Notes: a model not told the origin generated them from the sequence alone. 64,000 nucleotides of DNA from Bdellovibrionales bacterium (GCA_965203275.1 OZ241865.1:1504001-1568000), one strand, 5' to 3'. Shown: positions 1,242 to 56,597, counted from the first letter of the stretch. Translations and numbers: made by a program.

Positions 1242-1391
1242 TGTTTCACTAAAAGTGGTCTAGCCTCTGGCTACTTTCTAGGCGATGACCACGATGGCTT
1301 TCGCCATCGATAAAATGGTCATCGCCTAGAAAGCGTGACCACTTTTAGTAGGAAGGATCCTCTCGTCTCTTAACTACATGTTAAGGAAACA
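1242..1391 (+). repeat. Family A structured palindromic element, full copy
   Basis: TGTTTC-ACTAAAAGTGGTC...GACCACTTTTAGT...CATGTTAAGGAAACA with nested inverted repeats. Confidence 0.9.
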
Positions 1392-1409
1392 AGACTTTCA
1401 CTTTATCCC

Positions 1410-1462
1410 TGCCTGTCTGATGCCGGGTTGCCAGATCCCGGATCCCAGATCCCGGAAAAAGG
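1410..1462. repeat. Family E GC-rich heptamer run (GATCCCG/GATCCCA)
   Basis: ctgatgccgggttgccagatcccggatcccagatcccgg; related runs near 4832, 6268, 37079, 37969, 52673. Confidence 0.7.
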
Positions 1463-1598
1463 ATTCTCTCATATCTTTATACCATGTTAAGGAAACAAAG
1501 CATTCGTTTTTTTATTTTTTTATTCTTTTTAGATTCTGCGTAACTCTCAAAAAGATGAAGAATATTATGAGTGGGAGGCGGGGGCAGGCTGGAGGAGT

Positions 1599-1838
1599 TG
1601 TTTCACTAAAAGTGGTCTAGCCTCTGGCTACTTTCTAGGCGATGACCACGATGGCTTTCGCCATCGATAAAATGGTCATCGCCTAGAAAGCTTGACCACT
1701 TTTAGTAAGAAGGATCTCCTCGTTTTTTAACTCCATGTTAAGGAAAAAGTTCTTTCTTACACCTCTCGGCTTTCGCCATTGGCAAAATGGTCATTGCCCA
1801 AAAACATGCCAGAGGCATGATGCATTTTGAGTGAAAAA
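1599..1838 (+). repeat. Family A full copy plus mosaic partial copy
   Basis: 1599-1747 nearly identical to 1242-1391, followed by rearranged arms. Confidence 0.85.
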
Positions 1839-1954
1839 AGCTTTTGATTAAGATGGCTTCCAGTATTTGGTCTTTAAGATCATGTTTTCTATTGACAGCA
1901 ATGAAAGCTAATAAGTATAATAAACACAAGCTTAAAAATGATCACGAGGTTATA

Positions 1955-2626
1955 ATGTTTAAAAAATATGTTTTTATTTTTTTAGGGGTTCTTATGTTTC
2001 AAAATATATCAATCTTAGCACAAGAGGATAAAAAAACACCTAGAGAAACTCAGAAAAAATCTCCTCCACCTTCTATAAACTTAAATAAATTTCAAAGTGT
2101 TATAGCCGTTATACAAACATCTCTTGGAACTATTCAAGCCAATTTATACCATAAAAGAGTCCCTAAAACAGTTGCCAACTTTGTTGAGCTGGCAAGAGGA
2201 CAAAAAGGCATCAAGATCACAGATTCTAAAAAAGGAACAACAACAGTGCCTTTCTATAATGGATTGATTTTTCATCGTGTGATCCCTCAATTTATGATTC
2301 AAACAGGATGTCCTTATGGAACAGGGACAGGAGGACCAGGTTATACATTCGATGATGAATTTCATTCTTCCTTACGCCACGATGCCCCTGGTATTTTATC
2401 TATGGCTAACTCCGGCAAGAATACCAATGGGAGTCAATTTTTCATAACTCTTGCACCAACTCCTTGGTTAGACGACAAACATTCTGTTTTTGGAAAGGTC
2501 TCTGAAGGAATGGATATAGCCAATAAAATTGCAGGTGCTAAACGTAATCCTCTCAATGATAAACCCTTGAAAGATATTAAAATTATAAAACTCACAATTA
2601 AAACAACTCCCATAGCCAAAAAGTAA
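1955..2626 (+). CDS. Cyclophilin-type peptidyl-prolyl cis-trans isomerase with signal peptide
   Basis: FYNGLIFHRVIPQFMIQTG, LSMANSGKNTNGSQFFIT, HSVFGKV; ATG 1955 preceded by GAGG. Confidence 0.95.
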   Translation: MFKKYVFIFLGVLMFQNISILAQEDKKTPRETQKKSPPPSINLNKFQSVIAVIQTSLGTIQANLYHKRVPKTVANFVELARGQKGIKITDSKKGTTTVPFYNGLIFHRVIPQFMIQTGCPYGTGTGGPGYTFDDEFHSSLRHDAPGILSMANSGKNTNGSQFFITLAPTPWLDDKHSVFGKVSEGMDIANKIAGAKRNPLNDKPLKDIKIIKLTIKTTPIAKK

Positions 2627-2976
2627 CTATTGACCTTGCAACAATCAGTAACAATCCAGTAAAAATCAATATATCTATAAAAAAAGACCTACAAACCCAC
2701 AAAAGCATATAATCTATCAAGTAAAAAGAAAGCTAACTTATTAAATCCAACAAAAATCTTTTTCTTTATTATCATTGGCTTTTGAATTTGTCATAATAAA
2801 CATTCTTTCTTTTTAAATTGTTTTTTTATACCTGTTATTATACCTGCTTTATAAATCGAACATTGTGTATTGATTTTTTCCTTAAATAAGTATAATGAAA
2901 TAAAAGTAGAAAATCATATAACTTTATTAAACATAATTGAAGGCTTTCTTCACTTTACAAAAATAGGATGTATTAA

Positions 2977-3150
2977 ATGGAGCTTTTACAAATAGTTGTA
3001 ACTGTTATGGTTTTTTTGGTAGCTTAGTTGGCATTGTGCAATTTTATATCGGACCTATTGAACAAAGGATCAAAGATTTTAGAATGAGATTAAAGAACAA
3101 GTCAGCAATCATCTACCTTCACAAATTAGAAGGCTAGAAGACAACATTAT
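2977..3150 (+). pseudogene. Frameshifted member of TM + NH[IL]P[TS]Q coiled-coil family
   Basis: With two frame corrections reads MELLQIVVTVMVFFGSLVGIVQFYIGPIEQRIKDF..EIKEQVSNHLPSQIRRLED. Confidence 0.6.
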
Positions 3151-3214
3151 AATGGATGAGACTTTAATAAGTCTTTTCTTAAAAGTCTCCAATGAGGATG
3201 ATTATAAGGACTTT

Positions 3215-3810: not shown

Positions 3811-3970
3811 CTTGTTTCCTTAATATCTCACTCAAAATGAGCCACACCTCTGGTTCACTAAAAGTAAACCAACCTCTGGTTGCTTTTGAGGTAGCCAGCC
3901 TTGATGAAGGAACTTTTTCCTGAACATTTCACTCAAAATAAACTGGCCTCCGGCCACTTTTAGTGAAACA
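3811..3970. repeat. Family A mosaic of partial arms
   Basis: tgtttccttaa tail, tcactcaaaat arms, caacctctggttg hairpin, ttagtgaaaca end. Confidence 0.75.
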
Positions 3971-4971: not shown

Positions 4972-5181
4972 ATGACGATGCAAAAATTCAAAACTTACCA
5001 ATTAGCTACTGAGTTTTATCGTAACTCTAAAAAATTACATCTGAAAGAGTCTCATAGAAGTCAATTTCGAAGGGCTGTTTCAAGTATTGTACTTAACTTA
5101 GCTGAAGGATCTGCTAAGCCTACAGCAAAAGATCGTAGGAAATTTTATTATATTAGTCTTGGCTCTCTAATATCTCAATGA
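4972..5181 (+). pseudogene. Four-helix-bundle (23S rRNA IVP-like) protein, C-terminally truncated
   Basis: YQLA..FY, QFRRAVSSIVLNLAEG, KFYYISLGSL; only 69 aa, ending next to a family A element; AAGGAGG SD. Confidence 0.8.
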
Positions 5182-5186
5182 AACTC

Positions 5187-5362
5187 TTTTTCCTTAACAT
5201 GGTGTTAAGAAACGAAGAGATCCTCCCTACTCAAAGTGAACAGGCTTTTGAGACAATGACCATTTTGTCAAAGGCGAAAGCCTTTGCGGTCATTGTCCAA
5301 AAGTGGCCAGAGGCCAGTTCACTTTGAGTGAAACAGAGATGCGGCCCACTTTGAGTGAAACA
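5187..5362 (-). repeat. Family A full copy (5187-5335) plus nested partial end
   Basis: ACTCAAAGTGAAC/GTTCACTTTGAGT stem variant; second GAGTGAAACA end at 5362. Confidence 0.9.
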
Positions 5363-6295: not shown

Positions 6296-7497
6296 ACGAT
6301 GTTAAGGAAACAAGAGTTTCATTTGTAAACCCGCTTGCTCTTGAGGTAATAAAAGAAAATTTTCCCTAACATGGTGTCAGAAGCAAGGAGATCCGCTCTA
6401 CTCAAAATGAACAAGCTTTTGAGGTAGCCAGCCTTTTACGACGGCGTGAGCCGTCGGGCTAAACAGCTTATTTCCTTAACATGATGTTAGGAGACGAAGA
6501 GATCCTCTTTACTCAAAGTGAACAGGCTTTTGAGACAATGACCATTTTGTCAAAGGCGAAAGCCTTTGCGGTCATTGTCCAAAAGTGGCCAGAGGCCAGT
6601 TCACTTTGAGTGAAATGTTAAGGAAACAAGAGTTTCATTTGTAAACCCGCTTGCTCTTGAGGTAATAAAAGAAAATTTTCCCTAACATGGTGTAAAGGAG
6701 TAAAAGGATCCTCCTCTACTCAAAATGCATGGATTTTTGAGGCAATGACTATTTTGCCAACGTGAAGTAAACATCTTGTTTCCTTAACATCGTGTAAAGA
6801 GACAAGAGGATTCTTCTTACTAAAAATAAACGGATTTTTGAGGCAATCAGCCTTTGTCGACGGCGAGAGCCGTCGGGCTGATTGTCCAAAAACAGCCAGA
6901 GGCTGGTTTATTTTTAGTGAGACAAACGCGGTCATTGCCCAAGGTGTAAGAAGAAACTTTTTCCTTAACATGTGGTCAAGAGACGAAGAGATTCTTCTTC
7001 CTAAAATTGAACAAGCTTTTGAGGCAATCAGCCTTTGTCGACGGCGAGAGCCGTCGGGCTGATTGTCCAAAAACAGCCAGAGGCTGGTTTATTTTTAGTG
7101 AGACAAACGCGGTCATTGCCCAAGGTGTAAGAAGAAACTTTTTCCTTAACATGTGGTCAAGAGACGAAGAGATTCTTCTTCCTAAAATTGAACAAGCTTT
7201 TGAGGCGGTTAGCCTTTGATCGACGGCGGTAGCCGTCGGGCTGATTGTCCAAAAACAGCCAGAGGCTGGTTTATTTTTAGTGAGACAAACGCGGTCATTG
7301 CCCAAGGTGTAAGAAGAAACTTTTTCCTTAACATGTGGTCAAGAGACGAAGAGATTCTTCTTCCTAAAATTGAACAAGCTTTTGAGGCGGTTAGCCTTTG
7401 ATCGACGGCGGTAGCCGTCGGGCTAACTGCCCAAAAGTAGCCAGAGGCTAGTTCAATTTTAGGGAAACAGAGGCATGATGCATTTTGAGTGAAAAAA
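6296..7497 (-). repeat. Family A cluster including four tandem units (period 181-182 bp, about 6777-7469)
   Basis: Equivalent positions at 6840, 7021, 7202, 7384; 79-bp direct repeat at 6299-6377 and 6615-6693. Confidence 0.9.
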
Positions 7498-15291: not shown

Positions 15292-15609
15292 ATGGTGCGT
15301 TTTAATGAGATGTCGGATGCGAAAATTTTAAAAGAGTTAGGTCGTAGGTTAAAACAAAAACGTCTTAATCAAAACTTTTCTCAAGATGCTCTTGCAAAAA
15401 AATCCGGGCTTTCAAGGAGGAGTATTTATTTAGTGGAATCTGGGCATTCAGTAGGATTAAGTGTTATGATTCGTATTTTAAGAACACTGAGGAGTTTAGA
15501 CGGCTTAGATGCTTTTTTACCAGTAGAAGATGTCAGCCCTGTAGAGTTTATAAAATTAAAAGGTGTAGTACGTAAGCGTGCTTCAAAAAAAAGAGGAGTT
15601 AGTGTATGA
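15292..15609 (+). CDS. XRE-family HTH antitoxin (HipB-like)
   Basis: RLKQKRL..SQDALAKKSGLSRRSIYLVESG; overlaps hipA start. Confidence 0.85.
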   Translation: MVRFNEMSDAKILKELGRRLKQKRLNQNFSQDALAKKSGLSRRSIYLVESGHSVGLSVMIRILRTLRSLDGLDAFLPVEDVSPVEFIKLKGVVRKRASKKRGVSV

Positions 15610-16886
15610 ATTCAGCAGCCCGAGTAAAAATTTGGGGGCAAGTTGTTGGAGCGATACGGTGGGATGAAAAGAAAAGAGCTTCTTATTTTCAATATGATTC
15701 TCAATTTTTAAATTCAGGGATAGAGCTTTCACCTATTTATATGCCATTGAGTAAAGGTAATGAAATTTATAACTTCAAACATCTTAATTTTGAAACTTAC
15801 AGAGGGCTTCCTGGATTGCTTGCTGATAGTCTTACTGATGCATTTGGAAATAAACTTATAGATATGTGGTTAGCTCAAGAAGGACGTTCGAGAGAAGATT
15901 TTAGTCCTATTGAAAGATTATGTTATATTGGGAACAGAGGTATGGGAGCTTTAGAATTTGAACCTATGATTGAAAGACCTCAAGTGGAATTCATTAAAAT
16001 GAGTCACTTAGTTCAACTCACCAATCAAATTCTTAAAGAAAAGGAATCTTTCAAAACAACCTTTAAGAAATCTAATAATCTTCAAGATATAATCAATGTA
16101 GGCACTTCTGCCGGTGGGATGCGTCCCAAAGCAGTCATTGCAATTCATAAAAAAACAAAAGAGATAAGATCTGGACAAATTGAACTACCAAAAGAATTTG
16201 AATATTGGTTGCTTAAGTTTGATGGGGTTTCTGGCAGTGGCTTTGAGACACCTAAAGGATATGGACGAATAGAATATGCTTATTATCTTATGGCACAAAA
16301 ACTTGGGATTGATATGTCAGACTGTAAAATCTATAAAGAAAATGGTCGATCTCATTTTATGACTAAAAGATTTGATAGACAGTTTGGATATAGACATCAC
16401 TTACAAACATTATGTGGCATGGACCACTGTGATTATAGAATGCCTGGATATTATTCTTATGAACAGCTCTTTCAAGTGATGAGAAAATTGCACTTTTCAT
16501 ATCAAGATGTTGAGCAGATGTTTAAACGTATGGCTTTTAATATCATTGCAAGAAACCAAGATGATCATACAAAAAATATAAGCTTTTTACTTAAGAAAGG
16601 AGAAGATTGGAGATTAGCTCCTGCTTATGATTTGACTTTTTCTTATAACCCAGGAGGTTTGTGGACCTCAAAACATCACATGATGATGAGCGGGAAAGAT
16701 GATCACTTTGTAGAAGATGATTTTAATAAAGTAGCTACTTCTTTAGGAATTAATAAATGGAGAAATATTATGAAGGAAGTAGTTCAGGTAGTAAAACATT
16801 GGCCAGATTTTGCTAAAAAGGCTGGGGTGTATGCAAGGCAAATCAAATCAGTTGCTTCTCATCATAGAACCAAACTTAAGTTTTAA
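15606..16886 (+). CDS. hipA: Type II TA HipA-family kinase toxin
   Basis: TSAGGMRPKA, WLLKFD, KRFDR, RNQDDHTKN, LAPAYD. Confidence 0.93.
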   Translation: MNSAARVKIWGQVVGAIRWDEKKRASYFQYDSQFLNSGIELSPIYMPLSKGNEIYNFKHLNFETYRGLPGLLADSLTDAFGNKLIDMWLAQEGRSREDFSPIERLCYIGNRGMGALEFEPMIERPQVEFIKMSHLVQLTNQILKEKESFKTTFKKSNNLQDIINVGTSAGGMRPKAVIAIHKKTKEIRSGQIELPKEFEYWLLKFDGVSGSGFETPKGYGRIEYAYYLMAQKLGIDMSDCKIYKENGRSHFMTKRFDRQFGYRHHLQTLCGMDHCDYRMPGYYSYEQLFQVMRKLHFSYQDVEQMFKRMAFNIIARNQDDHTKNISFLLKKGEDWRLAPAYDLTFSYNPGGLWTSKHHMMMSGKDDHFVEDDFNKVATSLGINKWRNIMKEVVQVVKHWPDFAKKAGVYARQIKSVASHHRTKLKF

Positions 16887-26131: not shown

Positions 26132-26220
26132 ATTAACTCCTTGTTAGGTAAATATTTTGTGTTAATGAGCCAACCATTTTTAGTGAAACAAATTGTGGAT
26201 TGTTCAACAAATAATAATGT

Positions 26221-26412
26221 TTAGCTTAGATTGTTCAGTTTTTTCTGTATTTCTCGTATTCTGTTCTCTGTGGACTCTGTGATTTTTGCAATGATCGAAA
26301 TATCCATGTTATTTTTAAGCATTTTTAAGATGACACTTTGTTCTCCTTCCTGTCGCCCTTTTTGCAATCCTTCCTGTAATAATCTTTCTCTTGTGATCTG
26401 TAATGGTGGCAT
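26221..26412 (-). CDS. Orphan Rpn C-terminal cassette (RpnS-like) with divergent tail, 63 aa
   Basis: AAGGAGG SD then MPPLQITRERLLQEG..EQSVILKMLKNNMDISIIAKIT. Confidence 0.75.
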   Translation of the reverse strand: MPPLQITRERLLQEGLQKGRQEGEQSVILKMLKNNMDISIIAKITESTENRIREIQKKLNNLS

Positions 26413-26493
26413 GATTCTTTCCTCCTTTGATATATGTTTTTCTTCTATTTTTCGCAATACTTTCCATGTAAAACTAGGATCATAAATCCTGTC

Positions 26494-26737
26494 TGTTTCA
26501 CTCAAAGTGAACTGGCCTCTGGCCACTTTTGGACAATGACCGCAAAGGCTTTCGCCTTTGACAAAATGGTCATTGTCTCAAAAGCCTGTTCACTTTGAGT
26601 AGGGAGGATCTCTTCGTTTCTTAACACCATGTTAAGGAAAACATCCTTCTAATCGTTAGCCCGACGGCGGTAGCCGTCGGGCTAACTGCCAGAAAACATG
26701 CCAGAGGCATGATGCATTTTGAGTGCAATGTTAAGAA
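26494..26737 (+). repeat. Family A full copy plus partial module, spacer between Rpn cassettes
   Basis: Nearly identical to 27074-27317. Confidence 0.9.
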
Positions 26738-26755
26738 AGGGGTTAAATATAAAGC

Positions 26756-26992
26756 TTATAATCTTTGAAGGTTTAGTATTTCTTGTTTAGAAAGCCCTGT
26801 AGCTTTGCAAATAGTTTGGATATCTATATTAGCTTTTAAAAGCTTAGACAGAATCTCCCTCCGCCCTTCTTGCAAGCCCTCCTGTCGCCCTTCCTGTCGC
26901 CCTTCCTGTCGCCCTTCCTGTCGCCCTTTTTGCAACCCTTTTTGTAGTCCTTCTTGTAATAATCTTTCTCTTGTGATCTGTAGTGGTGGCAT
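26756..26992 (-). CDS. Orphan Rpn C-terminal cassette (RpnS-like), 78 aa
   Basis: Copy of rpn 3' end with one extra RQEG unit; same SD. Confidence 0.75.
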   Translation of the reverse strand: MPPLQITRERLLQEGLQKGLQKGRQEGRQEGRQEGRQEGLQEGRREILSKLLKANIDIQTICKATGLSKQEILNLQRL

Positions 26993-27073
26993 GGTTCTTT
27001 CCTCCTTTGATATATGTTTTTCTTCTATTTTTCGCAATACTTTCCATGTAAAACTAGGATCATAAATCCTGTC

Positions 27074-27317
27074 TGTTTCACTCAAAGTGAACTGGCCTCT
27101 GGCCACTTTTGGACAATGACCGCAAAGGCTTTCGCCTTTGACAAAATGGTCATTGTCTCAAAAGCCTGTTCACTTTGAGTAGGGAGGATATCTTCGTTTC
27201 TTAACACCATGTTAAGGAAAACATCCTTCTAATCGTTAGCCCGACGGCGGTAGCCGTCGGGCTAACTGCCAGAAAACATGCCAGAGGCATGATGCATTTT
27301 GAGTGCAATGTTAAGAA
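27074..27317 (+). repeat. Family A full copy plus partial module
   Basis: Duplicate of 26494-26737 (offset 580). Confidence 0.9.
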
Positions 27318-27335
27318 AGGGGTTAAATATAAAGC

Positions 27336-27560
27336 TTATAATCTTTGAAGGTTTAGTATTTCTTGTTTAGAAAGCCCTGTAGCTTTGCAAATAGTTTGGA
27401 TATCTATATTAGCTTTTAAAAGCTTAGACAGAATCTCCCTCCGCCCTTCTTGCAAGCCCTCCTGTCGCCCTTCCTGTCGCCCTTCCTGTCGCCCTTTTTG
27501 CAACCCTTTTTGTAGTCCTTCTTGTAATAATCTTTCTCTTGTGATCTGTAGTGGTGGCAT
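27336..27560 (-). CDS. Putative intragenic RpnS antitoxin (74 aa, in frame within rpn)
   Basis: Internal AAAGGAGG SD 7 nt before ATG 27560. Confidence 0.65.
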   Translation of the reverse strand: MPPLQITRERLLQEGLQKGLQKGRQEGRQEGRQEGLQEGRREILSKLLKANIDIQTICKATGLSKQEILNLQRL

Positions 27561-28361
27561 GGTTCTTTCCTCCTTTGATATATGTTTTTCTTCTATTTTT
27601 CGCAATACTTTCCATGTAAAACTAGGATCATAAATCCTAATAAAATCGACTGCTCTATCAACTAAAAATAACCTATCTTTTTCACTCTTTGCCTCATTAG
27701 ACAGCTTAAATAATTCCCCAACTACTTCCTCGTTTAAATTCCATACATTCTTTAGTATAAACAATATCATACTGGAAATCAAGTTTTTAGATTTTAATGT
27801 CTCTATACCTAAATCATATAGATTGAGCAAGCGATATTTGTAATTGAGAATATTCTCTTTAAAAGCTGCTTGCACCTTTGATGATGGAAAATTCAAATAT
27901 CCATGGAAACTCAACGGCATCTTCCAAGGCTCCTTACCAGAATAAACCAATACAGGAATTACCAAAGAAGGCACTTTATTTTTACCCTGTTGATCTTTAC
28001 TGTCCTTCTCATAAATATTAGCTTGGTAATTGAGCATCTGGATAAAAACACTAGGGTCGTTATAAGACTTATGCTCAAAAAGAAAAATAATCTCAACCAT
28101 CTGCCCTGTTTTCAGTTTAACAGAAAAAATCACATCAGCCCGACGCTCTCTAAAAGCCTTATCTATAAAAACAGTCACTCTAGATTGCAAAGTACTCCAA
28201 TCAAAAAGTTCAAATTCCTCTGAAGTTAAAACCAAACGGAATAAATCTAAAATATATTGTTCCTTGCTGTAAACTTCATAAAATAAATGGTCAAATAAAT
28301 GTAAGACATCACGCTTAAAACCTTTTTTGTTCTTTTTACGATGTTTGAATTTTTTAGACAT
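27336..28361 (-). CDS. Rpn/YhgA-like PD-(D/E)XK nuclease
   Basis: RRADVIFSV, FLFEHKS, QMLNY, VIPVLVYSG..W, xQEG repeats, C-terminal helical domain. Confidence 0.92.
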   Translation of the reverse strand: MSKKFKHRKKNKKGFKRDVLHLFDHLFYEVYSKEQYILDLFRLVLTSEEFELFDWSTLQSRVTVFIDKAFRERRADVIFSVKLKTGQMVEIIFLFEHKSYNDPSVFIQMLNYQANIYEKDSKDQQGKNKVPSLVIPVLVYSGKEPWKMPLSFHGYLNFPSSKVQAAFKENILNYKYRLLNLYDLGIETLKSKNLISSMILFILKNVWNLNEEVVGELFKLSNEAKSEKDRLFLVDRAVDFIRIYDPSFTWKVLRKIEEKHISKEERTMPPLQITRERLLQEGLQKGLQKGRQEGRQEGRQEGLQEGRREILSKLLKANIDIQTICKATGLSKQEILNLQRL

Positions 28362-28381
28362 AATCACTCCTTATGTGTTTT

Positions 28382-28556
28382 TGTTTCATTAAAAATAGTC
28401 TAGCCTCTGTTTCACTCAAAGTAAACTGACCTCTGGTCACTTTTGGACAATGACCGCAAAGGCTTTCGCCTTTGACAAAATGGTCATTGTCTCAAAAGCC
28501 TGTTCACTTTGAGTAGGGAGGATATCTTCGTTTCTTAACACAATGTTAAGGAAAAA
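28382..28556 (+). repeat. Family A partial end plus full copy (28408-28556) upstream of rpn
   Basis: tagcctc|tgtttcactc nested junction. Confidence 0.9.
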
Positions 28557-30496: not shown

Positions 30497-33400
30497 TTAT
30501 ATCTCTTTTTGTTCTTCTTTTTCCTGTATTTCTTCAATATGTTTTATCTCTTTTTCAATACGACTCTCTTTTGTAAAGATAGCTTCTTGTGTTGTTTTAA
30601 GAAGTTGAGAAATAAGATTATTGAGCTTTTCCCATGCATTTGTACTTTCGATTTCTTCTCTGATCTCTTGTCGAATTCTTTGAAATTTCCATTGTGGTTT
30701 AATTTCTACATTTTGAGCAATTTTTTTGATTTCCTTTACTTGAATTACAATGTCCTTATGGAGTGAGTCTGAAGGATTATATTTTGGAAAAGAAGGTTTT
30801 AATAAATGTGTATGAAAGTGTCTTGGTCCATGATTTCCTTGAGATTGTAAAGGTTGAACTTGATTTAAAATGCACTCACTATTTAAAATCCCCTCAAGAT
30901 ATATTCCTTCATCTTGACTGTCAACAGGACTCCAATATAAACTTGTGTCAATAACTCCTTTTATATCTTCTAATAAAACCGCTGCTGGATATGTTCCTGA
31001 AGCTGTGTAAACTATTCTTAATTTTGAAATAGGAAATTGATTTTCTAAAAGTTTCTGATAATTAATTCTTTCTTTGAAAGTCATCTTTTCACTACTATTA
31101 GCCTTCCAAATATCTTCGGCTCTTTTGAGATATTGACTTAAATAAGTATAACCTTTTTGCTCTGCTTCAAAGGAGTTCATAACTTGATTGTCATAAGGTA
31201 TCACAGCTAGTTTTGCATCATCAATAATTCTAAACGGAGCAATAGATTTGCCTGTATAAACAGGTTTTAAAAATTGTGATTCCATTTTGTTTTCTATTGG
31301 GTCAATACTTTTCCAAGGTTCTTTATCTTGACTGGAAGTAACACCTTTGACTAAAGGTGTTTTCTTTAAAACTCCAAGTTTTCCTCCTTGCATTTTTTCT
31401 ACAAAAATAAATCGCCTTGGAACTAAAGAAGCTCCTTGTTTAAATTTATCAAAATAATAAGAATACTCAGAAGGATCATTATAATGACTTAAAGGCCATT
31501 CTTTCTTTTCATAAGATAAAGCCTTATTAGCTTCTTCTAAGTTTATATTTTTTTGAGGAAGTTTTCCTTTAAAATAAAATATATCTTCCTGAGGTAGTGA
31601 TGCTTCAGATGGCTTTCTTCTTTGAGAAAACAAAACACAACAAGTTGTTTTAAAAAGATTTTTAACCTTTGAATCAAAAAGCCACGCATTTGTAAATTTA
31701 ATTGATATTTGAGTATCGGAGTTTCTGCTAAAAGAACCCTCTCTGAAGGCTCTATGATGATCTCCATTTATAACTCCATAAGGCATTACAAAAGCTAGTT
31801 TTCCTGTCTCTTTCATATACAATTCAATGGATCTCACGAAAAAATAAGTGGATATATCCTGGCTTGTTTGAAATTTGCTATTATTTTTATTGCTGTGCAA
31901 TAATTTAATGGCACAGCATTCATCCTTAAAATTTTTCTGCATGTCGTTTGTCATACTGTTATATTTTAACCAAGGAGGATTTCCAATGACGACATCTGCT
32001 TTTTGTTTTTCTGATGAAAGCCATATTGGACGAGTTAGATTTCTTGCCATATAACCCCAAATATGATTTCTATTTTCTTTATGAAGACTAACTAACTCTT
32101 GATAAGTTTTTAATAATATTTTAAATTCATTTTGGTTACTATATTCTTTGTAGTTCTTTTGCATCCATGCTTTAAAAGCTGAATCTTTTTTATGCTCTCC
32201 GGCTAAACCAATCATTCTTCTAAGAATATCTTCAAATTTTTCAGATTCTTGGCAAATAGATTCAGGAAAAATCAATTGTCTGCTATTTGCTTTTTCTTGC
32301 TCTGGCGGAACAAGAACTTTCAAGTGAGAATTTCCATGTTGTTTATATTTATTCCATTGCAGAGAGTCTCCTAAATAGACGGGAATATTCAAATTGTCCG
32401 GTCGGCCTTCCTCTATCTTCTCTAATATGGCTAGAAGATAAGTAATCCTTGAGAAAATAACAGCTACAGGATGGATGTCAATACCTGCTATATTTTGACA
32501 GATAAGATCTATTGTTTTTTCAGAAGATATGTTTTCTGTTTGAGCTTTAGAAATTAATAATTTTATCGCATGGAATAAAAATGTACCAGAACCACAAGCA
32601 GGATCAATCACCCTTTGTTGAAGGGGATTTTCTATTGCTTCTTTGCAAATCCTTTCAGCAAGCCAATCTGGTGTGTAATATTCTCCTAATCGATGCTTTG
32701 GCCCTTGTCTGATAAGATTCTCATATAGATCCTTTAGAATATCTGCTTGGATTTTAGAAAAGTCAAACCTATTTATGTGAGAAGCAATTTTTAAAATTAA
32801 TTTTGAACCTTCCTGATCAGATGCGATCCAACTAAAAAAATCGTTTTCAATGACACCAAAAACACTGGCATCTTTAAAACCTTTGCCACTTAATAAGTCT
32901 TTTCCTGATTGAGGAATTGTATCAAAGAAGGCAATGTGTCCAATAGCTTTGGAAATAATGGTTAAATAAGTATGTTCAATAAAAAGAGATTCTTCTATAC
33001 ATTCTTTTCCATATACGTTTTCAACAGCTTTTTTCCAAAGATCATATTTTAACTTAACTTCAGGTTTATTTTTGACTTTCTTCCATAAAGATTGAATTAA
33101 AATCAATGAACTTTGACAAAGGGGACTTTGTTGACCTATTTCTTTGCGTTGACCTATTTCTTTGCAAATATTTTCAGATGTAGCTTTTAAATGATCTTTG
33201 ATCAAAACAACACTTTCAAGCCATAATATAAATTCATTAGGTTTATCTTTTTGAATAGTGAAATCACTGATTTGTTTTAATTTATCTTTATGAAGGATAT
33301 AAACAATGTATTTTTTCCCATCAGTAGCAATACCAATATGTTTAATTCCAGTGTCTTTTTCTTTAGATTTGATATACCTTTTAATTTGATCTTGAGCATC

Positions 33401-33619
33401 TTGTAATTCCCTATTTAAGTTTCTTTTAATCTCAAAAATAGTTTGCCTCCATAAAGTATCAATACGTCCCCTACAAGAAAGTCTTTCTTCTAAATCAATT
33501 TCATCATCCTTAGCATAAAGTGCATCTTTTAAAATGTCACATAAAGTAAATTTAACTTGTTCATGCCCAGGTTTGCTATGAAGTTTATTGATATTTTGAA
33601 GGATTTGAGAAGATGTCAT
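30497..33619 (-). CDS. Single-chain restriction-modification enzyme (type IIG/IIL-like; nuclease + N6-adenine MTase + TRD)
   Basis: RID..IFEIK nuclease motif, GEYYTPDWLAE, IDPACGSGTFL, VIGNPPW. Confidence 0.9.
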   Translation of the reverse strand: MTSSQILQNINKLHSKPGHEQVKFTLCDILKDALYAKDDEIDLEERLSCRGRIDTLWRQTIFEIKRNLNRELQDAQDQIKRYIKSKEKDTGIKHIGIATDGKKYIVYILHKDKLKQISDFTIQKDKPNEFILWLESVVLIKDHLKATSENICKEIGQRKEIGQQSPLCQSSLILIQSLWKKVKNKPEVKLKYDLWKKAVENVYGKECIEESLFIEHTYLTIISKAIGHIAFFDTIPQSGKDLLSGKGFKDASVFGVIENDFFSWIASDQEGSKLILKIASHINRFDFSKIQADILKDLYENLIRQGPKHRLGEYYTPDWLAERICKEAIENPLQQRVIDPACGSGTFLFHAIKLLISKAQTENISSEKTIDLICQNIAGIDIHPVAVIFSRITYLLAILEKIEEGRPDNLNIPVYLGDSLQWNKYKQHGNSHLKVLVPPEQEKANSRQLIFPESICQESEKFEDILRRMIGLAGEHKKDSAFKAWMQKNYKEYSNQNEFKILLKTYQELVSLHKENRNHIWGYMARNLTRPIWLSSEKQKADVVIGNPPWLKYNSMTNDMQKNFKDECCAIKLLHSNKNNSKFQTSQDISTYFFVRSIELYMKETGKLAFVMPYGVINGDHHRAFREGSFSRNSDTQISIKFTNAWLFDSKVKNLFKTTCCVLFSQRRKPSEASLPQEDIFYFKGKLPQKNINLEEANKALSYEKKEWPLSHYNDPSEYSYYFDKFKQGASLVPRRFIFVEKMQGGKLGVLKKTPLVKGVTSSQDKEPWKSIDPIENKMESQFLKPVYTGKSIAPFRIIDDAKLAVIPYDNQVMNSFEAEQKGYTYLSQYLKRAEDIWKANSSEKMTFKERINYQKLLENQFPISKLRIVYTASGTYPAAVLLEDIKGVIDTSLYWSPVDSQDEGIYLEGILNSECILNQVQPLQSQGNHGPRHFHTHLLKPSFPKYNPSDSLHKDIVIQVKEIKKIAQNVEIKPQWKFQRIRQEIREEIESTNAWEKLNNLISQLLKTTQEAIFTKESRIEKEIKHIEEIQEKEEQKEI

Positions 33620-36730: not shown

Positions 36731-37002
36731 CATTTTCCCTAAAAGTGGTCTAGCCGTCATTTTCCCTAAAAGTAAACTGACCTCTGTTTCACTAAAAGTG
36801 GTCTGACCTCTGGTCACTTTCTGGTTGCCAGCCGAAGGCTATCGCCTTCTTATCTTTTTCACTAAAAATAAACCAGCCTCTGGCTGTTTTTGGGCAATCA
36901 GCCCGACGGCTGTCGCCGTCGATCAAAGGCTGATTGCCTCAAACATCCGTTTATTTTTAGTAGAGAGAATCCTCTCGTCTCTTTACACGATGTTAAGGAA
37001 AA
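36731..37002 (+). repeat. Family A: three stacked partial left ends plus full copy (36855-37002)
   Basis: Successive restarts at cattttccc / tgtttcac / tttttcac. Confidence 0.88.
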
Positions 37003-37011
37003 AGTTCTTTT

Positions 37012-37251: not shown

Positions 37252-37662
37252 GTGTTTGTAATTGTTAGACTTTTTTAGGTCGACTTTAGAAATTTCTAAT
37301 TTTTCGTCTAACACAATTCTTATCGTTTATTATGACATAAAACTTTATATTTTTGTTAAAAAAAATCAAAAAAAGTTACATTTTGTATCAAAAAGAATCA
37401 CTTTTTTAAACTTTTGTATCATCTTGAAACACTTGACCAACCTTAAAGATATAAGATCAGCAAAACAAACAATAAATTTTCATTTGTATTTTCTGATTTT
37501 TGCTTTGTTTGATTTTTCAAAACAATTTTCTTGCAAAAATTTGTCTGTTTTTTGCTCTTTCAAATTGTGACTTTTATACAAAAGTCACAGTGCTAAGTCC
37601 TTGAAATCACTAGGCTCATTTTTTTGTACTCTCTAAAGGTATAGAGACAAATAAACGAACTA

Positions 37663-37960
37663 GTTTCACTCAAAATAAATCATGCCTCTGGCATGTTTTC
37701 TGGCAGTTAGCCCGACGGCTACCGCCGTCGATCAAAGGCTAACTGCCTAGAAAAATCATTTATTTTGAGTAGGGGGGAGGATCTCCTCATTTTTTGACAA
37801 GATGTTAGGGAGTTTGTTTCACTAAAAGTGGTCTGACCTCTGGTCACTTTCTGGTTGCCAGCCGAAGGCTACCGCCTTCTTAAATGCTGGCAACCTAGAA
37901 AGCCTGACCACTTTTAGTAAGAAGGATCCCTTCGTTTCTTTACACGATGTTAAGGAAACA
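37663..37960 (+). repeat. Two tandem family A copies with different stem alleles
   Basis: ACTCAAAATAAAT/ATTTATTTTGAGT copy then ACTAAAAGTGGTC/GACCACTTTTAGT copy. Confidence 0.9.
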
Positions 37961-38155
37961 AGATGTCCTTCTGATGCCAGACTGCCGGTTTACCGGATCC
38001 CGGATGGACATCATGTTAAGAAAAGAAGGGAAGGGAAGAAAAGGTTAGGTAAGCATCTGGGAGATACAAACAAGCCTAACTATAAAAGGTAAAAGAGGAT
38101 GGTTTAAGATGCTATCCATAATTTTTTATTTCATTTAACCACGAGGAGGTACAAA

Positions 38156-41318: not shown

Positions 41319-41324
41319 TCTAAA

Positions 41325-41812
41325 CACTAAAAGTGGTCTGGCCGCTGGCCACTTTCTGGCGATGACCACGACGGCTTTCGCCGTCGATAAAATGGTCATC
41401 ACCTAGAAAGCCTGACCACTTTTAGTAGAGAGGATCCTCTCGTCTCTTGACCACATGTTAAGGAAAAAGTTCCTTCTTACACCTTGGGCGATGACCACGA
41501 TGGCTTTCGCCATTGGCAAAATGGTCATTGCCTCAAAAGTCCGTTTACTTTTAGTAAAGAGGATATCTTCGTTTTTTGACTACATGTTAAGGAAAAAGTT
41601 CCTTCTTACACCTTGGGCGATGACCACGATGGCTTTCGCCGTCGATCAAAGGCTGATTGCCTCAAAAATCCGTTTATTTTTAGTAGGAAGAATCCTCTTG
41701 TCTCTTGACTACATGTTAAGGAAACAGTTTCTTCCTACACCTGTTGCCTGCAAAGGCTTTCGCCTTTGACAAAATAGGCAACATCTAAAAAGCCCGCTCA
41801 TTTTGAGTGAAA
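41325..41812 (+). repeat. Family A tandem cluster (one near-full, three partial units)
   Basis: Repeated catgttaaggaaa tails and aagttccttcttacaccttgggcgatgacc linkers. Confidence 0.88.
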
Positions 41813-42300: not shown

Positions 42301-42762
42301 ATGATTGATCTATCAATGGATATTGATTTGATATGGTGGTTTTTGGTAAAACATCCTATATTTTCCTTAATTATAGGAATTGTTTCAGGGATAATAGGAT
42401 TCTGTTTTTGGACTTTATATCAACAGCTATCTAACCATTTACCTACACAGATCAAAGAGGTAAAGCAAGAGGTAAAAGAGGTCAAACAAGAGGTAGAGCA
42501 AGAGATAAAAGAGGTGAAACAAGAGATAAAAAAAGTTAAAGAAGAGGTAAGGCAAGAGATAAAAGAAGTGAAAAAAGAGGTGAAACAAGAGATAAAAGAA
42601 GTTAAAGAAGAGGTAAGGCAAGAGATAAAAGAAGTTAAAGAAGAGGTGAAACAAGAGATAAAAGAAGTTAAAGAAGAGGTAAAACAAGAGATAAAAGAAG
42701 TTAAAGAAGAGGTAAAGGAAGTTAAGCAAGACATTAAAGGTCTTCTTAAGAAGTCCGGTTAA
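42301..42762 (+). CDS. TM + NHLPTQ + 11-aa-periodic coiled-coil protein
   Basis: N-terminal TM, QLSNHLPTQIKE, repeated KEEV(K/R)QEIKEV (33-bp units). Confidence 0.8.
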   Translation: MIDLSMDIDLIWWFLVKHPIFSLIIGIVSGIIGFCFWTLYQQLSNHLPTQIKEVKQEVKEVKQEVEQEIKEVKQEIKKVKEEVRQEIKEVKKEVKQEIKEVKEEVRQEIKEVKEEVKQEIKEVKEEVKQEIKEVKEEVKEVKQDIKGLLKKSG

Positions 42763-46646: not shown

Positions 46647-47074
46647 TTTGAAAGTAAAAAGTCCTATTGGTTTCGATACATACTTTAACGATCGTTAAGA
46701 CCACGTTTTAAAGTGTGACCATCTAAGAAACAAAAGGGCTGTTTTATAATACTTTGGTGGAGCTTTTTCTCAATATCACAACTGTTTGAATTAATCCTGA
46801 CAGAGTTTATATGATCGCTGTGGTCTGTTTTCGTCAGACTTGCTACTTTTCTTTTCTGTGAATGACTTAACGGGAGGCCATTTGTACCTTCCTTTTGAAT
46901 TTTTGATTTTATAACAACATAATAAAGTTTTATCTAAGTTCCAAGACTATATGGCAGTGCGTCAAAATCTACATTGTCTATTGACACACCTTCAAAATAA
47001 ATCTAAAATAAAAGAGTAGGCAATTAATGTTTGTTTCTGTTAAGGTTTTTAAAAGGTTTAAGGAGAAATTAGCA

Positions 47075-47479
47075 ATGGAAGATGGATTATTACGGGTTTT
47101 ATTGATAGTTTTAGGGATTATTGGTGTTTTTAATTTGTTTTCCTTTGCTATTTTCTTTGGTAGCCTATTTAGTATTGTAAAGTTCTGGGTTGAACCTACG
47201 ATTGCCCCCATAAAAGATAATCAAATAGAATTAAAAGATAATCAAAGGGAATTAAAAACTGACATCAATAATTTAAAAGCCGACATCAATAAATTAGAAA
47301 CCAACGTCCATAAAATCGATCAGAAAGTAGACGGAATGGAAAAAAACATTAAAGGATTAGAACAAAATATTAAAGGATTAGAAAGAAATGTTAAAGGATT
47401 AGAAAAAAATGTTACAGAATTAAAAGATGGCTTCAGTAGAGTTATTCACGTGATTGAAAGATTACCAACATCTGGTTAA
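47075..47479 (+). CDS. TM + heptad coiled-coil protein (related architecture, lacks NHIPTQ)
   Basis: AAGGAG SD, TM segment, repeated KGLE(Q/R/K)N(I/V). Confidence 0.7.
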   Translation: MEDGLLRVLLIVLGIIGVFNLFSFAIFFGSLFSIVKFWVEPTIAPIKDNQIELKDNQRELKTDINNLKADINKLETNVHKIDQKVDGMEKNIKGLEQNIKGLERNVKGLEKNVTELKDGFSRVIHVIERLPTSG

Positions 47480-52672: not shown

Positions 52673-52830
52673 CCAGGATCTGGGATCTGGGATCTGGGAT
52701 CCGGGATCCGGCATCAGACAAGGATGAAACGAATATCTTGTTTCCTTAACATTTCACTCAAAATGAGCGGATTTTTTAGATGTTGCCTATTTTGTCAAAA
52801 GCGAAAGCCTTTGCAGAAGATGTAAGAAAG
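52673..52830. repeat. Family E heptamers (GGATCTG/GGATCCG) plus partial family A
   Basis: ggatctgggatctgggatctgggatccgggatccggcatcag; tgtttccttaacatttcactcaaaatg. Confidence 0.75.
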
Positions 52831-53028: not shown

Positions 53029-53811
53029 ATGAAATATTTGGGTTGGAGTATTTTTCTAGTTATATTTTTTATAGGTTTTATAGGTTGCCGACTTATTGAT
53101 CAAACTCTTGTGAGGCAAGAACTAAAAGCACTTCAGGATAGTATACATGAAGGACTCTTACCATCAGATACTTTTCCGTTATTTGTCACATTAAATACAA
53201 TGCTCTCTAGTGATACTTTATATGTTTTAGGACAGAGGCACAGCCATTCACAATCCCAAAATATTCCAAACATCCCATCTATCATCTCACATTATTTTGA
53301 TGACATACAATCTAGGATTGTAATTAATAAGGGTAGCACTATTGAACTAAAAGCTCATCATATTCTTTCTTCTATCCCCTTCATTGATACAAAAGCTATC
53401 CCTGGAATAGCGACTATGATTGAAGATCAATATCAAGATATCCAGGATGGCCAGGAAATCTATGGTTATTGGTTCGATCACAAATTTCTTTGTAAATATG
53501 AATGTGCATGTTACGCTATAAAGTTTACTTCATTAATTAATGCTCATGCTAGTGCCAATGTAGTGATTATCCCTATAAAAATAACAGGGGGGGGGGCAGG
53601 AGTCAAGGTGAAAAGAGGCTTTGGAATGCAGTCAACATATTTATACCACGTCACTTCAATTATTGTAGATCTAAAAGATTATTCAGCGGGTGTGATAGAC
53701 CCTATCATATTTGGAGATGCTAAAATATACCCTTTGTCATCTCTTTATGAAAGGATTATAAATGTTTCTACTATGACTTTTTCGACCTTTTATCACTCTA
53801 TGAGAAGGTAA
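53029..53811 (+). CDS. Lipoprotein with putative papain-like protein-glutaminase domain
   Basis: Lipobox FIGC; ordered ECACYA, YLYHVTSII, VIDPIIF motifs. Confidence 0.55.
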   Translation: MKYLGWSIFLVIFFIGFIGCRLIDQTLVRQELKALQDSIHEGLLPSDTFPLFVTLNTMLSSDTLYVLGQRHSHSQSQNIPNIPSIISHYFDDIQSRIVINKGSTIELKAHHILSSIPFIDTKAIPGIATMIEDQYQDIQDGQEIYGYWFDHKFLCKYECACYAIKFTSLINAHASANVVIIPIKITGGGAGVKVKRGFGMQSTYLYHVTSIIVDLKDYSAGVIDPIIFGDAKIYPLSSLYERIINVSTMTFSTFYHSMRR

Positions 53812-54090
53812 GGCGATGACCATTTTATCGATGGCGAAAGCCATCGTGGTCATTGTCAGAAAGTAGCCAGAGGCTAGACCACTTTTAGTGAAACAGCTCA
53901 GCCTTTGATCGACGACGACAGTCGTCGGGCTAACTATTAGAAGGATGTTTTCCTTAACATGGGGTTAAAAAACGAGGAGATCCTCCTTACTAAAAGTGGT
54001 CAAGCTTTCTAGGTTGCCAGCATTTAAGAAGGCGGTAGCCAGAGGCTGGCAACCAGAAAGTGACCAGAGGTCAGACCACTTTTAGTGAAA
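53812..54090 (-). repeat. Family A cluster (two partial, one full copy)
   Basis: Starts at the base after the upstream stop codon; other end overlaps the stop of the next gene. Confidence 0.88.
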
Positions 54091-55665
54091 TTTAAAAGAA
54101 TTAGGATTTGCTAATTGGATATATTCTCGAAGTACTTGAGGGATTTTGTTTTTTAAAAAATCCCCCGGTGTCACAGAAGGGAATAATTCTTCATAAGTTT
54201 TTACTTCTATTTTATTGATACGTCTGTTGAGAAAACTTCTTTTGATTTGCTCTGAACTGGCAGAACCAGTAGCACCAATTAAAGCAGCAAGGTAATGTAT
54301 ATTTTGCTTATGATAATAATAAACACGCCTCTTTTTATCTGTCACATTCAGTCCTATCACAAGATGAGGTTTCTGTGTAGCCACACCTACAGGGCATTGA
54401 TTAGAGTTGCACTTTCTGGCTTGAATGCAACCTAGTGCTAACATCATTCCTCGACCTGATGTTAAAATATCTCCACCAAGAGCTATTTTATTAAGCATTT
54501 GAAATGCCGTAATAATTTTTCCTGAACAAATAAGCTTAATATGCTTTCTTAAATCATACCCTTTCAAAACATCATGGACAAAGACAAGACTTTCATCTAA
54601 AGGTGTCCCCACTGCATTAGAAAACTCAAGAGGTGCTGCTCCTGTACCTCCTTCCCCTCCATCCACAGCAATAAAATCAGGATAAATTTGCTCCTCTACC
54701 ATAGCTTGACAAATAGCAATAAATTCATGCCGATGACCAATGCATAATTTAAAACCAATAGGTTTATAGCCTGAGAGTTCTCTGAGTTTTTGTACAAAAT
54801 GCAACAGTCCACGTGGAGTTTGAAAAGTGCTATGATAAGAAGGCGATACAATATCTTTGCCCATCGGAACATTTCTGATGCGAGCAATTTCAGGTGTGAT
54901 TTTGCGAGCAGGCAGAATACCTCCATGTGCAGGCTTAGCCCCTTGAGATAGTTTAAGTTCTATCATTTTAATTTGATCATCTTGAGCATTCTCTTGAAAT
55001 AACTCCTCACAAAAATTCCCATTTTTGTCACGGCAACCAAAATACCCTGTTCCTATTTGCCAAACAATGTCACCTCCAGGTTTACGATGATAAGGACTAA
55101 TGGACCCTTCTCCTGTGTTGTGATAAAAATGCCCCATCTTAGCTCCTCCATTAAGAGCTAGAATTGCATTTTTACTTAAAGACCCATAGCTCATACCAGC
55201 TATATTAAAGATGCTACAAGAATAAGGTTTTTTGCATTCTGTTCCGCCAACTAAAACACGCAAACTTTGAGGGTCTACTTTTTGAGGAGTTAAGGAATGG
55301 TTGATCCATTCATAGCCAACTCCATAGACATCTCTTTGAGTTCCAAAAGGGACAGTATCTAGCTCCCTTTTTGCTCTTTGATAAACAATACTTCGATATT
55401 CTCTGGAAAAAGGAGTACCATCAGTGTTGTTTTCTACAAAGTATTGTTGAATCTCAGGACGAATAGCTTCAAAAAAATACCTTAATCGACCAATAACAGG
55501 GAAGTTTTTTAGTACAGCTCGCTTTTTTTGATTCATATCTACTAAACCAACGACAAAGGCAATGAAAGCAGGTAAGAGTAACAACCAAATAGGTTGCCAA
55601 AAATAACCTCCCATCCCTATAAAACAAAAAACAATAAGAGATATTAGTAAGAACTCTAAACGCAT
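54082..55665 (-). CDS. FMN-binding glutamate synthase family protein
   Basis: GMSYGSLS, NTGEG, WQIGTGYFG, IELKLSQGAKP, DGGEGGTGAA, GCIQARKCNSNQCPVG; start set at MRLEF. Confidence 0.92.
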   Translation of the reverse strand: MRLEFLLISLIVFCFIGMGGYFWQPIWLLLLPAFIAFVVGLVDMNQKKRAVLKNFPVIGRLRYFFEAIRPEIQQYFVENNTDGTPFSREYRSIVYQRAKRELDTVPFGTQRDVYGVGYEWINHSLTPQKVDPQSLRVLVGGTECKKPYSCSIFNIAGMSYGSLSKNAILALNGGAKMGHFYHNTGEGSISPYHRKPGGDIVWQIGTGYFGCRDKNGNFCEELFQENAQDDQIKMIELKLSQGAKPAHGGILPARKITPEIARIRNVPMGKDIVSPSYHSTFQTPRGLLHFVQKLRELSGYKPIGFKLCIGHRHEFIAICQAMVEEQIYPDFIAVDGGEGGTGAAPLEFSNAVGTPLDESLVFVHDVLKGYDLRKHIKLICSGKIITAFQMLNKIALGGDILTSGRGMMLALGCIQARKCNSNQCPVGVATQKPHLVIGLNVTDKKRRVYYYHKQNIHYLAALIGATGSASSEQIKRSFLNRRINKIEVKTYEELFPSVTPGDFLKNKIPQVLREYIQLANPNSFKFH

Positions 55666-55940
55666 TTTTTCCTTAAAAGTCAACACACTGTTGGCATGTT
55701 TTTCACTCAAATTGGTCTAGTATCGTTGATCCTCTGGGCTACTTTCTGACGATCATTGCAATAGCTTGTGCCATTGACAACATAATCACACCTAGTGTTA
55801 AGCTTCAGAGAAGCTTGTTTACCTGATTGAATAAGAAAAAGTCATCAGAAGGTTAGTCAGAAGACTTTATAATGAATTTATCGGATATTTTGATCAATAT
55901 GATAAAGGGTAAAGTGATGTGTTTTGAATTTCTAGCCTTT

Positions 55941-56108
55941 TGTTTCCCTAAAAGTGGTCTTTTTCACTCAAAATAAACTGGCCTCTGGCCACTTTTGGAC
56001 AATGACCGCAAAGGCTTTCGCCTTTGACAAAATGGTCATTGTCTCAAAAGCCTGTTCACTTTGAGTAAGGAGGATCTCCTCGTTTTTTAACACAATGTTA
56101 AGGAAACA
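55941..56108 (+). repeat. Family A partial end plus full copy
   Basis: Chimeric outer stem ACTCAAAATAAAC / GTTCACTTTGAGT. Confidence 0.88.
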
Positions 56109-56182
56109 AGATGTTCGTATTTTTTCATTTTTTTTATTTTTTTAGATTCTGCGTAACTTTCAAAAAAGAAGTAATTAGGGAG

Positions 56183-56285
56183 GAGGATGGGGCAGTGGGA
56201 GACTGGAGATCTTCCGCAAATTGAGCTTGCTCTTTAAAAGCAAGCTCAATTGAGGACTTCGGAAGGCTCACACTGCCCCATCCTC
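56183..56285. other. GC-rich nested hairpin, unassigned
   Basis: 15-bp outer IR (GAGGATGGGGCAGTG/CACTGCCCCATCCTC) and 13-bp inner IR (AATTGAGCTTGCT/AGCAAGCTCAATT). Confidence 0.7.
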
Positions 56286-56344
56286 AAATAAAAATAAAAT
56301 GGAAAAGCAGAATCAAGGGCGGAGGGTGGGGTTAGGGAGTTAGC

Positions 56345-56597
56345 TGTTTCACTAAAAGTGGTCTGGCCTCTGTTTCCCTAAAATTGAACTGGCCTCTAGC
56401 CACTTCTGGGCAATCAGCCCGACGGCTCTCGCCGTCGATCAAAGGCTGATTGCCTCAAAAATCCGTTTATTTTTAGTAGAGAGGGAACCTTCGTTTTCTA
56501 ACACCATGTTAAGGAAACAAGATGTTTAGCACAATGGCTTTCGCCTTTGACAAAATGGTCATTGCTTCAAAAATTTATGCATTTTGAGTGAAAAAAA
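56345..56597 (+). repeat. Family A partial end, full copy (56371-56519) and partial
   Basis: ggcctc|tgtttccc nested junction. Confidence 0.88.

Follow-up and report, generated by a model that had tools for sequence, protein, structure and literature searches.

Family A (hereafter A) is a dispersed, non-coding repeat unit of about 150 bases with a three-armed fold, many copies of which lie in the 64,000-nucleotide stretch analyzed here as a whole (the window, G000:C1:1504001-1568000). The window belongs to G000, the 2.57-Mb, single-contig genome of a Bdellovibrionales-like bacterium (35% G+C, 90% complete). In every unit of A, the 3' end of the folded strand, on the TGTTTC side, is nearly fixed, and the other end is variable. 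We propose, at about even odds, that A is a selfish, non-autonomous element and that its copies arise by target-primed copying with a folded single strand as the template, in a manner resembling that of short interspersed nuclear elements (SINEs). As the donor, RNA from a read-through transcript trimmed just 3' of the outer stem is somewhat favored over single-stranded DNA (ssDNA).

A first-pass annotation, made from the sequence of the window alone, had described more than 20 full or partial copies of one architecture, had suggested a non-autonomous mobile element of no named family, and had advised counting its copies across the genome. About 18 near-full copies and about 20 fragments were found in the window, among ordinary housekeeping, defense and repeat-protein genes, and the five outer stems that the annotation quoted were all in place, the one at ~7363-7463 belonging to a minus-strand copy. 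A profile built on the window copies gave 1,292 non-redundant matches in G000, of which 737 were full length, and none in the shuffled and reversed genome. The matches mask ~6.7% of G000, and the 1,187 that score above 30 bits form 396 loci, each of 1-10 units. Only eight of these loci overlap a gene, and A is thus almost wholly intergenic; identical copies are also present. None of 4,227 Rfam families matched the window at the gathering score, in agreement with the absence of a recognized family, and the open-access literature, to which the survey was confined, held no account of A, nor of any SINE-like repeat in bacteria that is linked to four-helix-bundle genes.

The junctions of A with its targets were read against paralogous empty sites. 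In 115 of 133 junctions, the target identity stopped 2-11 bases before the conserved C, and 0-9 additional, T-rich bases are present at the nearly fixed end of A. Among the 84 junctions of a cleaner set, T occupied 147 of 229 extra-base positions, neither a target consensus nor C^T on either strand was found, and the base before the break was T in 45%, G in 27%, A in 18% and C in 10%, the exact base being blurred by microhomology. The TGTTTC end described in the annotation is present in the copy at 1242 but is variable across the family, with G at -1 in 65% of 633 copies. At its far end, A continues into a linker that is hypervariable, with 65 variants among 128 heptamer-linked tails, and among the matches listed the linkers often resemble degenerate target copies, as judged by eye. 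The empty sites also reveal deletions or long duplications at the insertions. Duplications of 27-139 bp were present at 11 of 372 low-copy junctions, several within A-derived DNA, against 4 of 1,857 controls. A constant target-site duplication (TSD) was not found, since 315 of the 372 low-copy junctions had no duplication of at least 10 bp, the length from which screening was systematic. The small-hairpin loop carries 14-nt fold-back additions in related loci, with 17 matches that include overlapping loci. Non-self targets showed no preference for hairpin loops, which were hit in 24 of 84 cases and in 18-26 in the shifted controls. The precise ssDNA chemistry of REPIN or attC type that had been offered for A is not supported, in view of these junctions, which are imprecise at both ends and have no C^T or tetranucleotide target, and of the lack of a Y1/HUH match in G000. 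The other suggestion, a mobile structured RNA, is the best fit to the junctions, although unproven.

The same junctions bear on a classical transposable element of the miniature inverted-repeat type (MITE) that a resident DDE transposase mobilizes, or a recombination site resembling attC, both of which are already largely refuted and which we consider very improbable. A 6-bp TGTTTC/GAAACA inverted end is present in some copies, the tail of A contains GTTRRR, and two insertion sequences (IS), IS256 and IS1634, are active in G000. However, conservation of the inverted end and a constant TSD are both lacking, and the ends of IS256 (GAGC..GCTC, with an 8-bp TSD) and IS1634, the two IS families compared, are unrelated to A. 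Many outer-stem alleles lack the AAC/GTT core and so fail the RYYYAAC/GTTRRRY cores of integron attC sites, and the copies delimit no cassettes of a single open reading frame (ORF). Two copies of IS256 (G000:C1 432,252-433,487 and 626,507-627,742) lie within A arrays with 8-bp duplications, and those arrays therefore predate the IS256 insertions.

Copies of A sit inside older copies of A and inside genes, with small deletions or long duplications, which supports the mobility that had been proposed. The nested insertion of A into A is real: in 34 of 87 cases, where 10.5 are expected, the two flanking pieces of the target copy can be paired with each other again. The pieces are colinear in 63 of the 87 (44 expected), and the inserted copy's own arm pairs with the right-hand target piece in only nine. 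The ends of A fragments concentrate at the small-hairpin loop and the three-way junction. Self-insertion had been missed by the first-pass annotation, as had a truncated four-helix-bundle gene at 4972-5169, cut by the copy at 5187-5339. Elsewhere in G000, A was also observed inside two different CRISPR arrays (G000:C1 ~245,700 and ~369,400), each duplicating ~29-38 bp of repeat sequence; G000 carries Cas12a-type genes as well.

The folded strand is the reverse complement of the strand on which A was first written, and its loops are of the G-N-N-A type. By our tally, 622 of 681 unique full copies have an apical loop of the form G..A when the reverse complement is read (GAAA 215, GGTA 89, GATA 79, GAGA 57, GTAA 56, and others), and on the plus strand of an alignment of 47 copies, drawn from the window and related loci, A.C/C.A mismatches number 43 against 14 of G.U. 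The loops and the mismatch excess together place the TGTTTC end at the 3' end of the folded strand.

The copy at 1242 folds as described, at -52.5 kcal/mol as DNA (z -13.2; RNA fold z -10.9), and none of 200 shuffles folded equally well. In the 47-copy alignment, 29 of 41 pairs change on both sides, and the covariation score is 0.463, compared with 0.183 when shuffled and 0.045-0.096 when slid, so that the fold is indeed conserved while the sequence varies, beyond what relatedness gives. The variation consists of ~10 discrete alleles per module, which are reshuffled into 104 combinations among 405 pattern-parsed copies. In these copies, the arm-to-arm linkage V is 0.89 for the outer stem, 0.91 and 0.89 for the inner stem, and 0.99 for the apical stem, whereas V between the outer left arm and anything between the arms is only 0.37-0.77. 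Relatedness alone thus fails to explain the covariation, because the stem arms are more tightly linked than the intervening sequence and the modules are reshuffled. The 13-bp outer stem of the annotation is perfect in 542 of 670 intact copies (90 expected), the remainder being mostly chimeras. Its single bulged base in the inner stem is kept in 809 of 816 heads, but the quoted copy at 1242 is itself, with its twin at 1599, among the seven that lack it. Arm-to-arm copying does occur, as 16 inner flips and a strand switch at 39 of 996 ends, and the fold is under selection, because the bulge survives in the remaining heads despite such copying. That the covariation is a mere by-product of arm-to-arm copying was rejected, as such copying is rare and the bulge is retained. 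Flip-flop (rolling-hairpin) inversion as the norm was also rejected, as the loops hold one orientation.

Target-primed copying is favored because A combines a fixed 3' end with an A-rich tail, a variable and cargo-bearing other end, extra bases, deletion or long duplication of the target, and snap-back. From the observed polarity, nesting and junction heterogeneity, we infer the priming, the nature of the donor and a role for the four-helix-bundle protein as follows. At a nick or break in the chromosome, a free 3'-OH would anneal over 0-3 bases to the short A-rich tail at the 3' end of the folded donor. From there, a low-fidelity polymerase would add a few T-rich bases and copy through the fold and tail, and could run on into the 5' DNA of the donor, taking in heptamer runs, the four-helix-bundle gene, Rpn pieces and remnants of older copies. 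Partial homology would let the new strand join the target again at a distance of between a few and ~140 bases from the nick. A multi-copy, Avd-like four-helix-bundle protein would be the best candidate for an accessory factor.

A can be compared with non-long-terminal-repeat (non-LTR) retrotransposons and SINEs, which use target-primed reverse transcription and whose junction features are those of L1 and R2, and with microhomology-mediated end joining (MMEJ) by group II-like reverse transcriptases (RTs) such as G2L4. A shares with them a fixed 3' end, a short A-rich tail and a variable 5' end, together with variable target duplication or deletion, extra bases, inversions and snap-back. According to 10.1101/2022.03.14.484287, group II-like RTs can prime at microhomologies, synthesize by snap-back and act as terminal transferases (T=A>G>>C). 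A differs from non-LTR elements and SINEs in its bacterial host, in that no RT or partner long interspersed nuclear element was found, in its putative RNA stage, in its capture of 5' cargo and in its strong self-targeting. A more specific and more speculative form of the proposal, which we rate as rather unlikely, is a bacterial SINE-like element whose structured RNA, with a defined 3' end, would be copied into nicks by a polymerase that evades RT models, with an Avd-like accessory, in a process that would also duplicate and shuffle neighboring genes and would account for the movement of the widespread four-helix-bundle/heptamer cassettes.

The copies of A in the window and the features joined to them are as follows.

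1242-1389, plus strand: full copy of A, bulge-less variant (profile match and DNA fold; the folded strand is the reverse complement).
1242-1247, plus strand: TGTTTC end of this copy, from the sequence.
1248-1349, plus strand: three-way fold of this copy, with outer stem 1248-1260/1337-1349, small hairpin 1261-1273, inner stem 1274-1291/1316-1333 and apical hairpin 1292-1309.
Extending to 1389, plus strand: tail of this copy, from the fold.
1410-1496, plus strand: heptamer (GATCCCG-type) run, then a tail-only fragment of A.
1595-1839, plus strand: full copy (1595-1747) and a headless piece (1768-1798) switching to a minus-strand head (1789-1835).
3827-3967, no strand assigned: stacked heads of A with a strand switch at the inner stem.
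4972-5169, plus strand: gene of the Avd-like four-helix-bundle family TIGR02436/PF05635, which A cuts so that residues 1-66 of 101 are left; the family is shown on an intact paralogue, and a heptamer run and 5' hairpin lie upstream.
5187-5339, minus strand: full copy joined to the truncated four-helix-bundle gene, with stacked heads onward to ~5360.
6360-7493, minus strand: array of A with full copies at 6470-6616, 6778-6928, 6959-7109, 7140-7291 and 7321-7473 (tandem units of 181-182 bp), headless pieces at 6360-6462 and 6676-6762, and a head at 7468-7493.
26345-27309, no strand assigned: 580-bp tandem unit of an Rpn gene 3' part, a full copy (26490-26641 and 27069-27221, plus strand) and an inverted partial copy.
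27336-28367, minus strand: Rpn/YhgA-like nuclease gene (PF04754) between copies of A, a frequent target.
28407-28555, plus strand: full copy.
36735-37003, plus strand: three stacked head fragments (ends at columns 19, 23 and 64), then a full copy (36852-37003).
37660-38026, plus strand: two full copies head to tail (37660-37811 and 37812-37959), a heptamer remnant and a tail fragment.
41323-41811, plus strand: full copy, a pair of headless tandem units of 129 bp and a piece terminating in a minus-strand terminus.
52753-52816, no strand assigned: heptamer run and inverted tail, with a partial copy behind them.
53811-54091, minus strand: partial copies (53811-53935) and a mosaic near-full copy (53948-54091).
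55944-56107, plus strand: head fragment and a full copy (55957-56107).
56348-56597, plus strand: head fragment, a full copy (56370-56518) and a headless piece terminating in a minus-strand terminus.

A second structured repeat family, palindrome-rich and with poly-T and G/C-run segments, is a frequent neighbor and target of A (window 56130-56340 and 1500-1595), and two further families occur elsewhere in G000, one a 38-bp perfect hairpin and the other with a GTACGTAC palindrome. The window also contains small membrane-anchored coiled-coil genes (60187-61240, 42301-42762 and 47027-47479), and a similar coiled-coil family has ~60-67 copies across G000, mostly not adjoining A. A HipBA-like toxin-antitoxin pair (15292-16886), a type IIG-like restriction-modification gene (30497-33619) and a protein of 704 aa that is rich in cysteine, has tandem repeats of 51 aa and matches no Pfam family (61456-63570), similar to a protein on contig C4 of genome G004, were also observed.

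The four-helix-bundle gene of G000 is present as nine intact copies, five cut or interrupted N-terminal copies (one being that at 4972-5169) and 18 C-terminal fragments. The linked ORF of 101 aa, located between heptamer runs, scores 58.4 bits against the TIGR02436 cut-off of 24, and the closest relatives of its protein are from Bdellovibrionales. We take its family (TIGR02436/PF05635), that of the 23S rRNA intervening-sequence (IVS) protein, to be related to Avd of diversity-generating retroelements (DGRs). In contrast to the IVS setting, the A-linked gene is not in rRNA and the heptamer runs are directly oriented, and in contrast to DGRs, G000 shows neither an RT nor adenine-specific mutagenesis. 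The four-helix-bundle genes are split by A with short target deletions; 17 of the 18 C-terminal fragments begin directly after an A end, and the coverage of the gene is 12-15 at its 5' end and 28-31 at its 3' end. A lies downstream on the opposite strand in 10 of 11 four-helix-bundle ORFs, so that the gene and the folded strand of A read in the same direction, and 169 of 227 heptamer tracts are within 90 nt of an A tail. The downstream-opposite arrangement was also found for 41 of 145 recently duplicated genes compared with 61 of 591 single-copy genes, in families that are not independent, whereas the opposite arrangement was not enriched (33 of 145 versus 113 of 591). No constant neighbor of four-helix-bundle genes was found at 80 loci. 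In other genomes (loci L030, L040, L044, L055, L060, L063, L064, L066, L067 and L071), the 5' half of many four-helix-bundle genes seems, by eye, to be repeated in inverted orientation ahead of the gene, giving a long fold-back hairpin.

Several points weigh against target-primed copying or its RNA form. No RT was found in G000 with PF00078, by tblastn with two full-length RTs of genome G001 or by a motif scan, plasmids, phages and very divergent RTs lying outside these searches, and archaeo-eukaryotic primase (PF01896) and Y-family polymerase (PF00817) models had no match. Subtraction of the element-free genome G003 left 256 soluble ORF families in G000, and neither an RT nor a transposase was among 40 Pfam-scanned ORFs of at least 130 aa, most of them from these families without a G003 homologue and one, an HNH gene, shared with G003; 18 of the 40 had no Pfam family. 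As identical copies of A exist, the enzyme should be recent. A DGR-like adenine bias was not found among rare variants (T>N at 58 of 21,799 and A>N at 36 of 17,916 positions). The 65% AT content of the genome accounts for part of the T-richness of the extra bases, and the junction calls rest on paralogous empty sites, in which single-nucleotide polymorphisms shift the calls and amplified junctions, not being independent events, enter the counts repeatedly. Two findings speak against a tight partnership: many genomes that lack A have four-helix-bundle/heptamer units, and A can be found in both orientations relative to the gene in related loci. In G000 alone, the mismatch asymmetry over 25 pairs is weaker (A.C to G.U, 249 to 146) and mostly due to chimeras. 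GNYA makes up 200 of 568 four-base G..A loops, and the stems are almost purely Watson-Crick, with wobble alleles rare; RNA and ssDNA are therefore not told apart, and such stems, and such loops by their energetics, suit ssDNA as well as or better than RNA.

These features of the loops and stems suit a different proposal, an ssDNA element like repetitive extragenic palindromic (REP) sequences and bacterial interspersed mosaic elements (BIMEs). Its HUH transposase (Y1, of the type of IS200 or REP-associated tyrosine transposases, RAYTs) would be lost or too divergent, and low-specificity cleavage with extension by host polymerases would build the arrays. The conserved extrahelical base of the inner stem, the strict Watson-Crick stems with C-GNNA-G loops, the BIME-like tandem arrays and mosaic linkers, and a single Y1 gene in G001 all speak for it. 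TnpA-REP can recombine and amplify BIMEs in vitro, according to PMC3333891, and repeats without a dedicated enzyme are known, according to PMC3733652. These two sources also describe REP/BIME/REPIN-RAYT systems as intergenic hairpin repeats in hundreds of copies, with mosaic tandem arrays and a conserved unpaired base, as in A, but built on hairpins of 20-40 nt and not on a 150-nt three-way fold. G000 itself has no match to PF01797, to the Y1 proteins of relatives by tblastn or to an HUH motif scan, and thus no host RAYT. There is no A copy within 1.5 kb of the G001 Y1 locus, no C^T at the junctions on either strand, and no GTAG or CGTC tag at the foot in a column profile of 737 copies, and the ends are imprecise. 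To our knowledge, the extra bases, deletions and 27-139 bp duplications are not products of Y1 strand transfer. Taken together, we hold this explanation to be possible but doubtful.

Searches for other enzymes gave no clear candidate, and none had been recognized in the window, as we confirm. IS110 (PF02371, with working controls) and GxxExxY (PF13366) had no match in G000, and IS91 (PF04986) had none either, although its control was likewise blank. PF01541 matched one 653-aa ORF, with matches of similar size in all five genomes, PF04480 gave one weak match, and the general tyrosine recombinase model PF00589, which is not specific for IntI, gave two matches, in a family that relatives without A have as well. 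Besides its Y1, G001 carries a group II intron RT, a further piece of such an RT and a retron-like RT (types that we presume from their sequences), and G000 shares none of these; a copy of A lies ~440 bp from the retron-like RT.

Rpn genes are numerous in G000 and often split by A. At window 26200-28367, an Rpn gene is followed by the 580-bp tandem duplication of its 3' end with an A copy, the two 3' ends being different, and the same Rpn piece with A recurs at other Rpn loci (G000 ~888,200 and ~1,287,300). This bears on an explanation without a dedicated enzyme, in which the hairpins stall replication or are nicked, for example by Rpn, and host polymerases switch template to other copies. The fold would then be retained because it serves the host as an RNA stabilizer or terminator, or because well-folded copies are the best donors. 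The strand switches at stems (39 of 996 ends and 16 inner flips) and the almost entirely intergenic position of A agree with it, as does PMC5350276, in which RpnA generates 3'-OH ends able to prime template switching. Two G001 proteins, putative SbcC and SbcD by our own naming from sequence, also found no match in G000 by tblastn. On the other hand, G003 has 16 Rpn matches and no A, which also weakens Rpn as A's enzyme, and convergent gene pairs are not strongly favored (96 of 396 A loci versus 166 of 927 gaps). Generic template switching, moreover, leaves the same-end start of nearly every unit unexplained, and we regard this explanation as improbable, on a par with the HUH one.

Among the genomes searched, A appears close to genus-specific. 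BLAST found it in 2 of 40 relatives and a covariance model in 2 of 150 order-level genomes; the same model had no match in 150 genomes at the phylum level, a strict pattern had none in viral and metagenome contigs, and the 1.6-Mb G003 had none. In G004, three small contigs that resemble G001 (C1, C4 and C11) hold all 12 matches as well as the genome's one Rpn gene, and on one A-bearing contig the Rpn gene is nearly identical at its N-terminus to a G001 Rpn; these matches may be binning contamination.

Other known repeats come close to A. According to PMC3184786, bcr1 of the Bacillus cereus group is likewise ~155 bp, dispersed, mobile and without an element-encoded enzyme, with a branched fold in which two stem-loops are kept by compensatory changes. 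As described there, bcr1 is always flanked by 5-bp direct repeats, whereas A has no constant TSD; A also nests in itself, has one-sided cargo and has 737 full copies. Rickettsia palindromic elements (RPEs, ~105-146 bp), in the same text, resemble A in size, palindromic structure and small host-associated genome, but A lacks the CGTC tag that PMC3733652 reports for RPEs, and nearly all of its copies are intergenic.

Abundant structured intergenic repeats are thus a known kind, represented by REP, bcr1 and RPE, for which the moving enzyme is often an open question. The junctions of A do not fit precise HUH, DDE or recombinase chemistry and look like target-primed copying, and A offers hundreds of nested, datable junctions within one closed genome. 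If the RNA step is true, A would spread in a bacterium much as SINEs do, and the free-standing four-helix-bundle proteins, long without an explanation, would gain a testable substrate. Regardless of the mechanism, ~7% of the genome consists of A, which disrupts genes and seems to transport neighboring genes.

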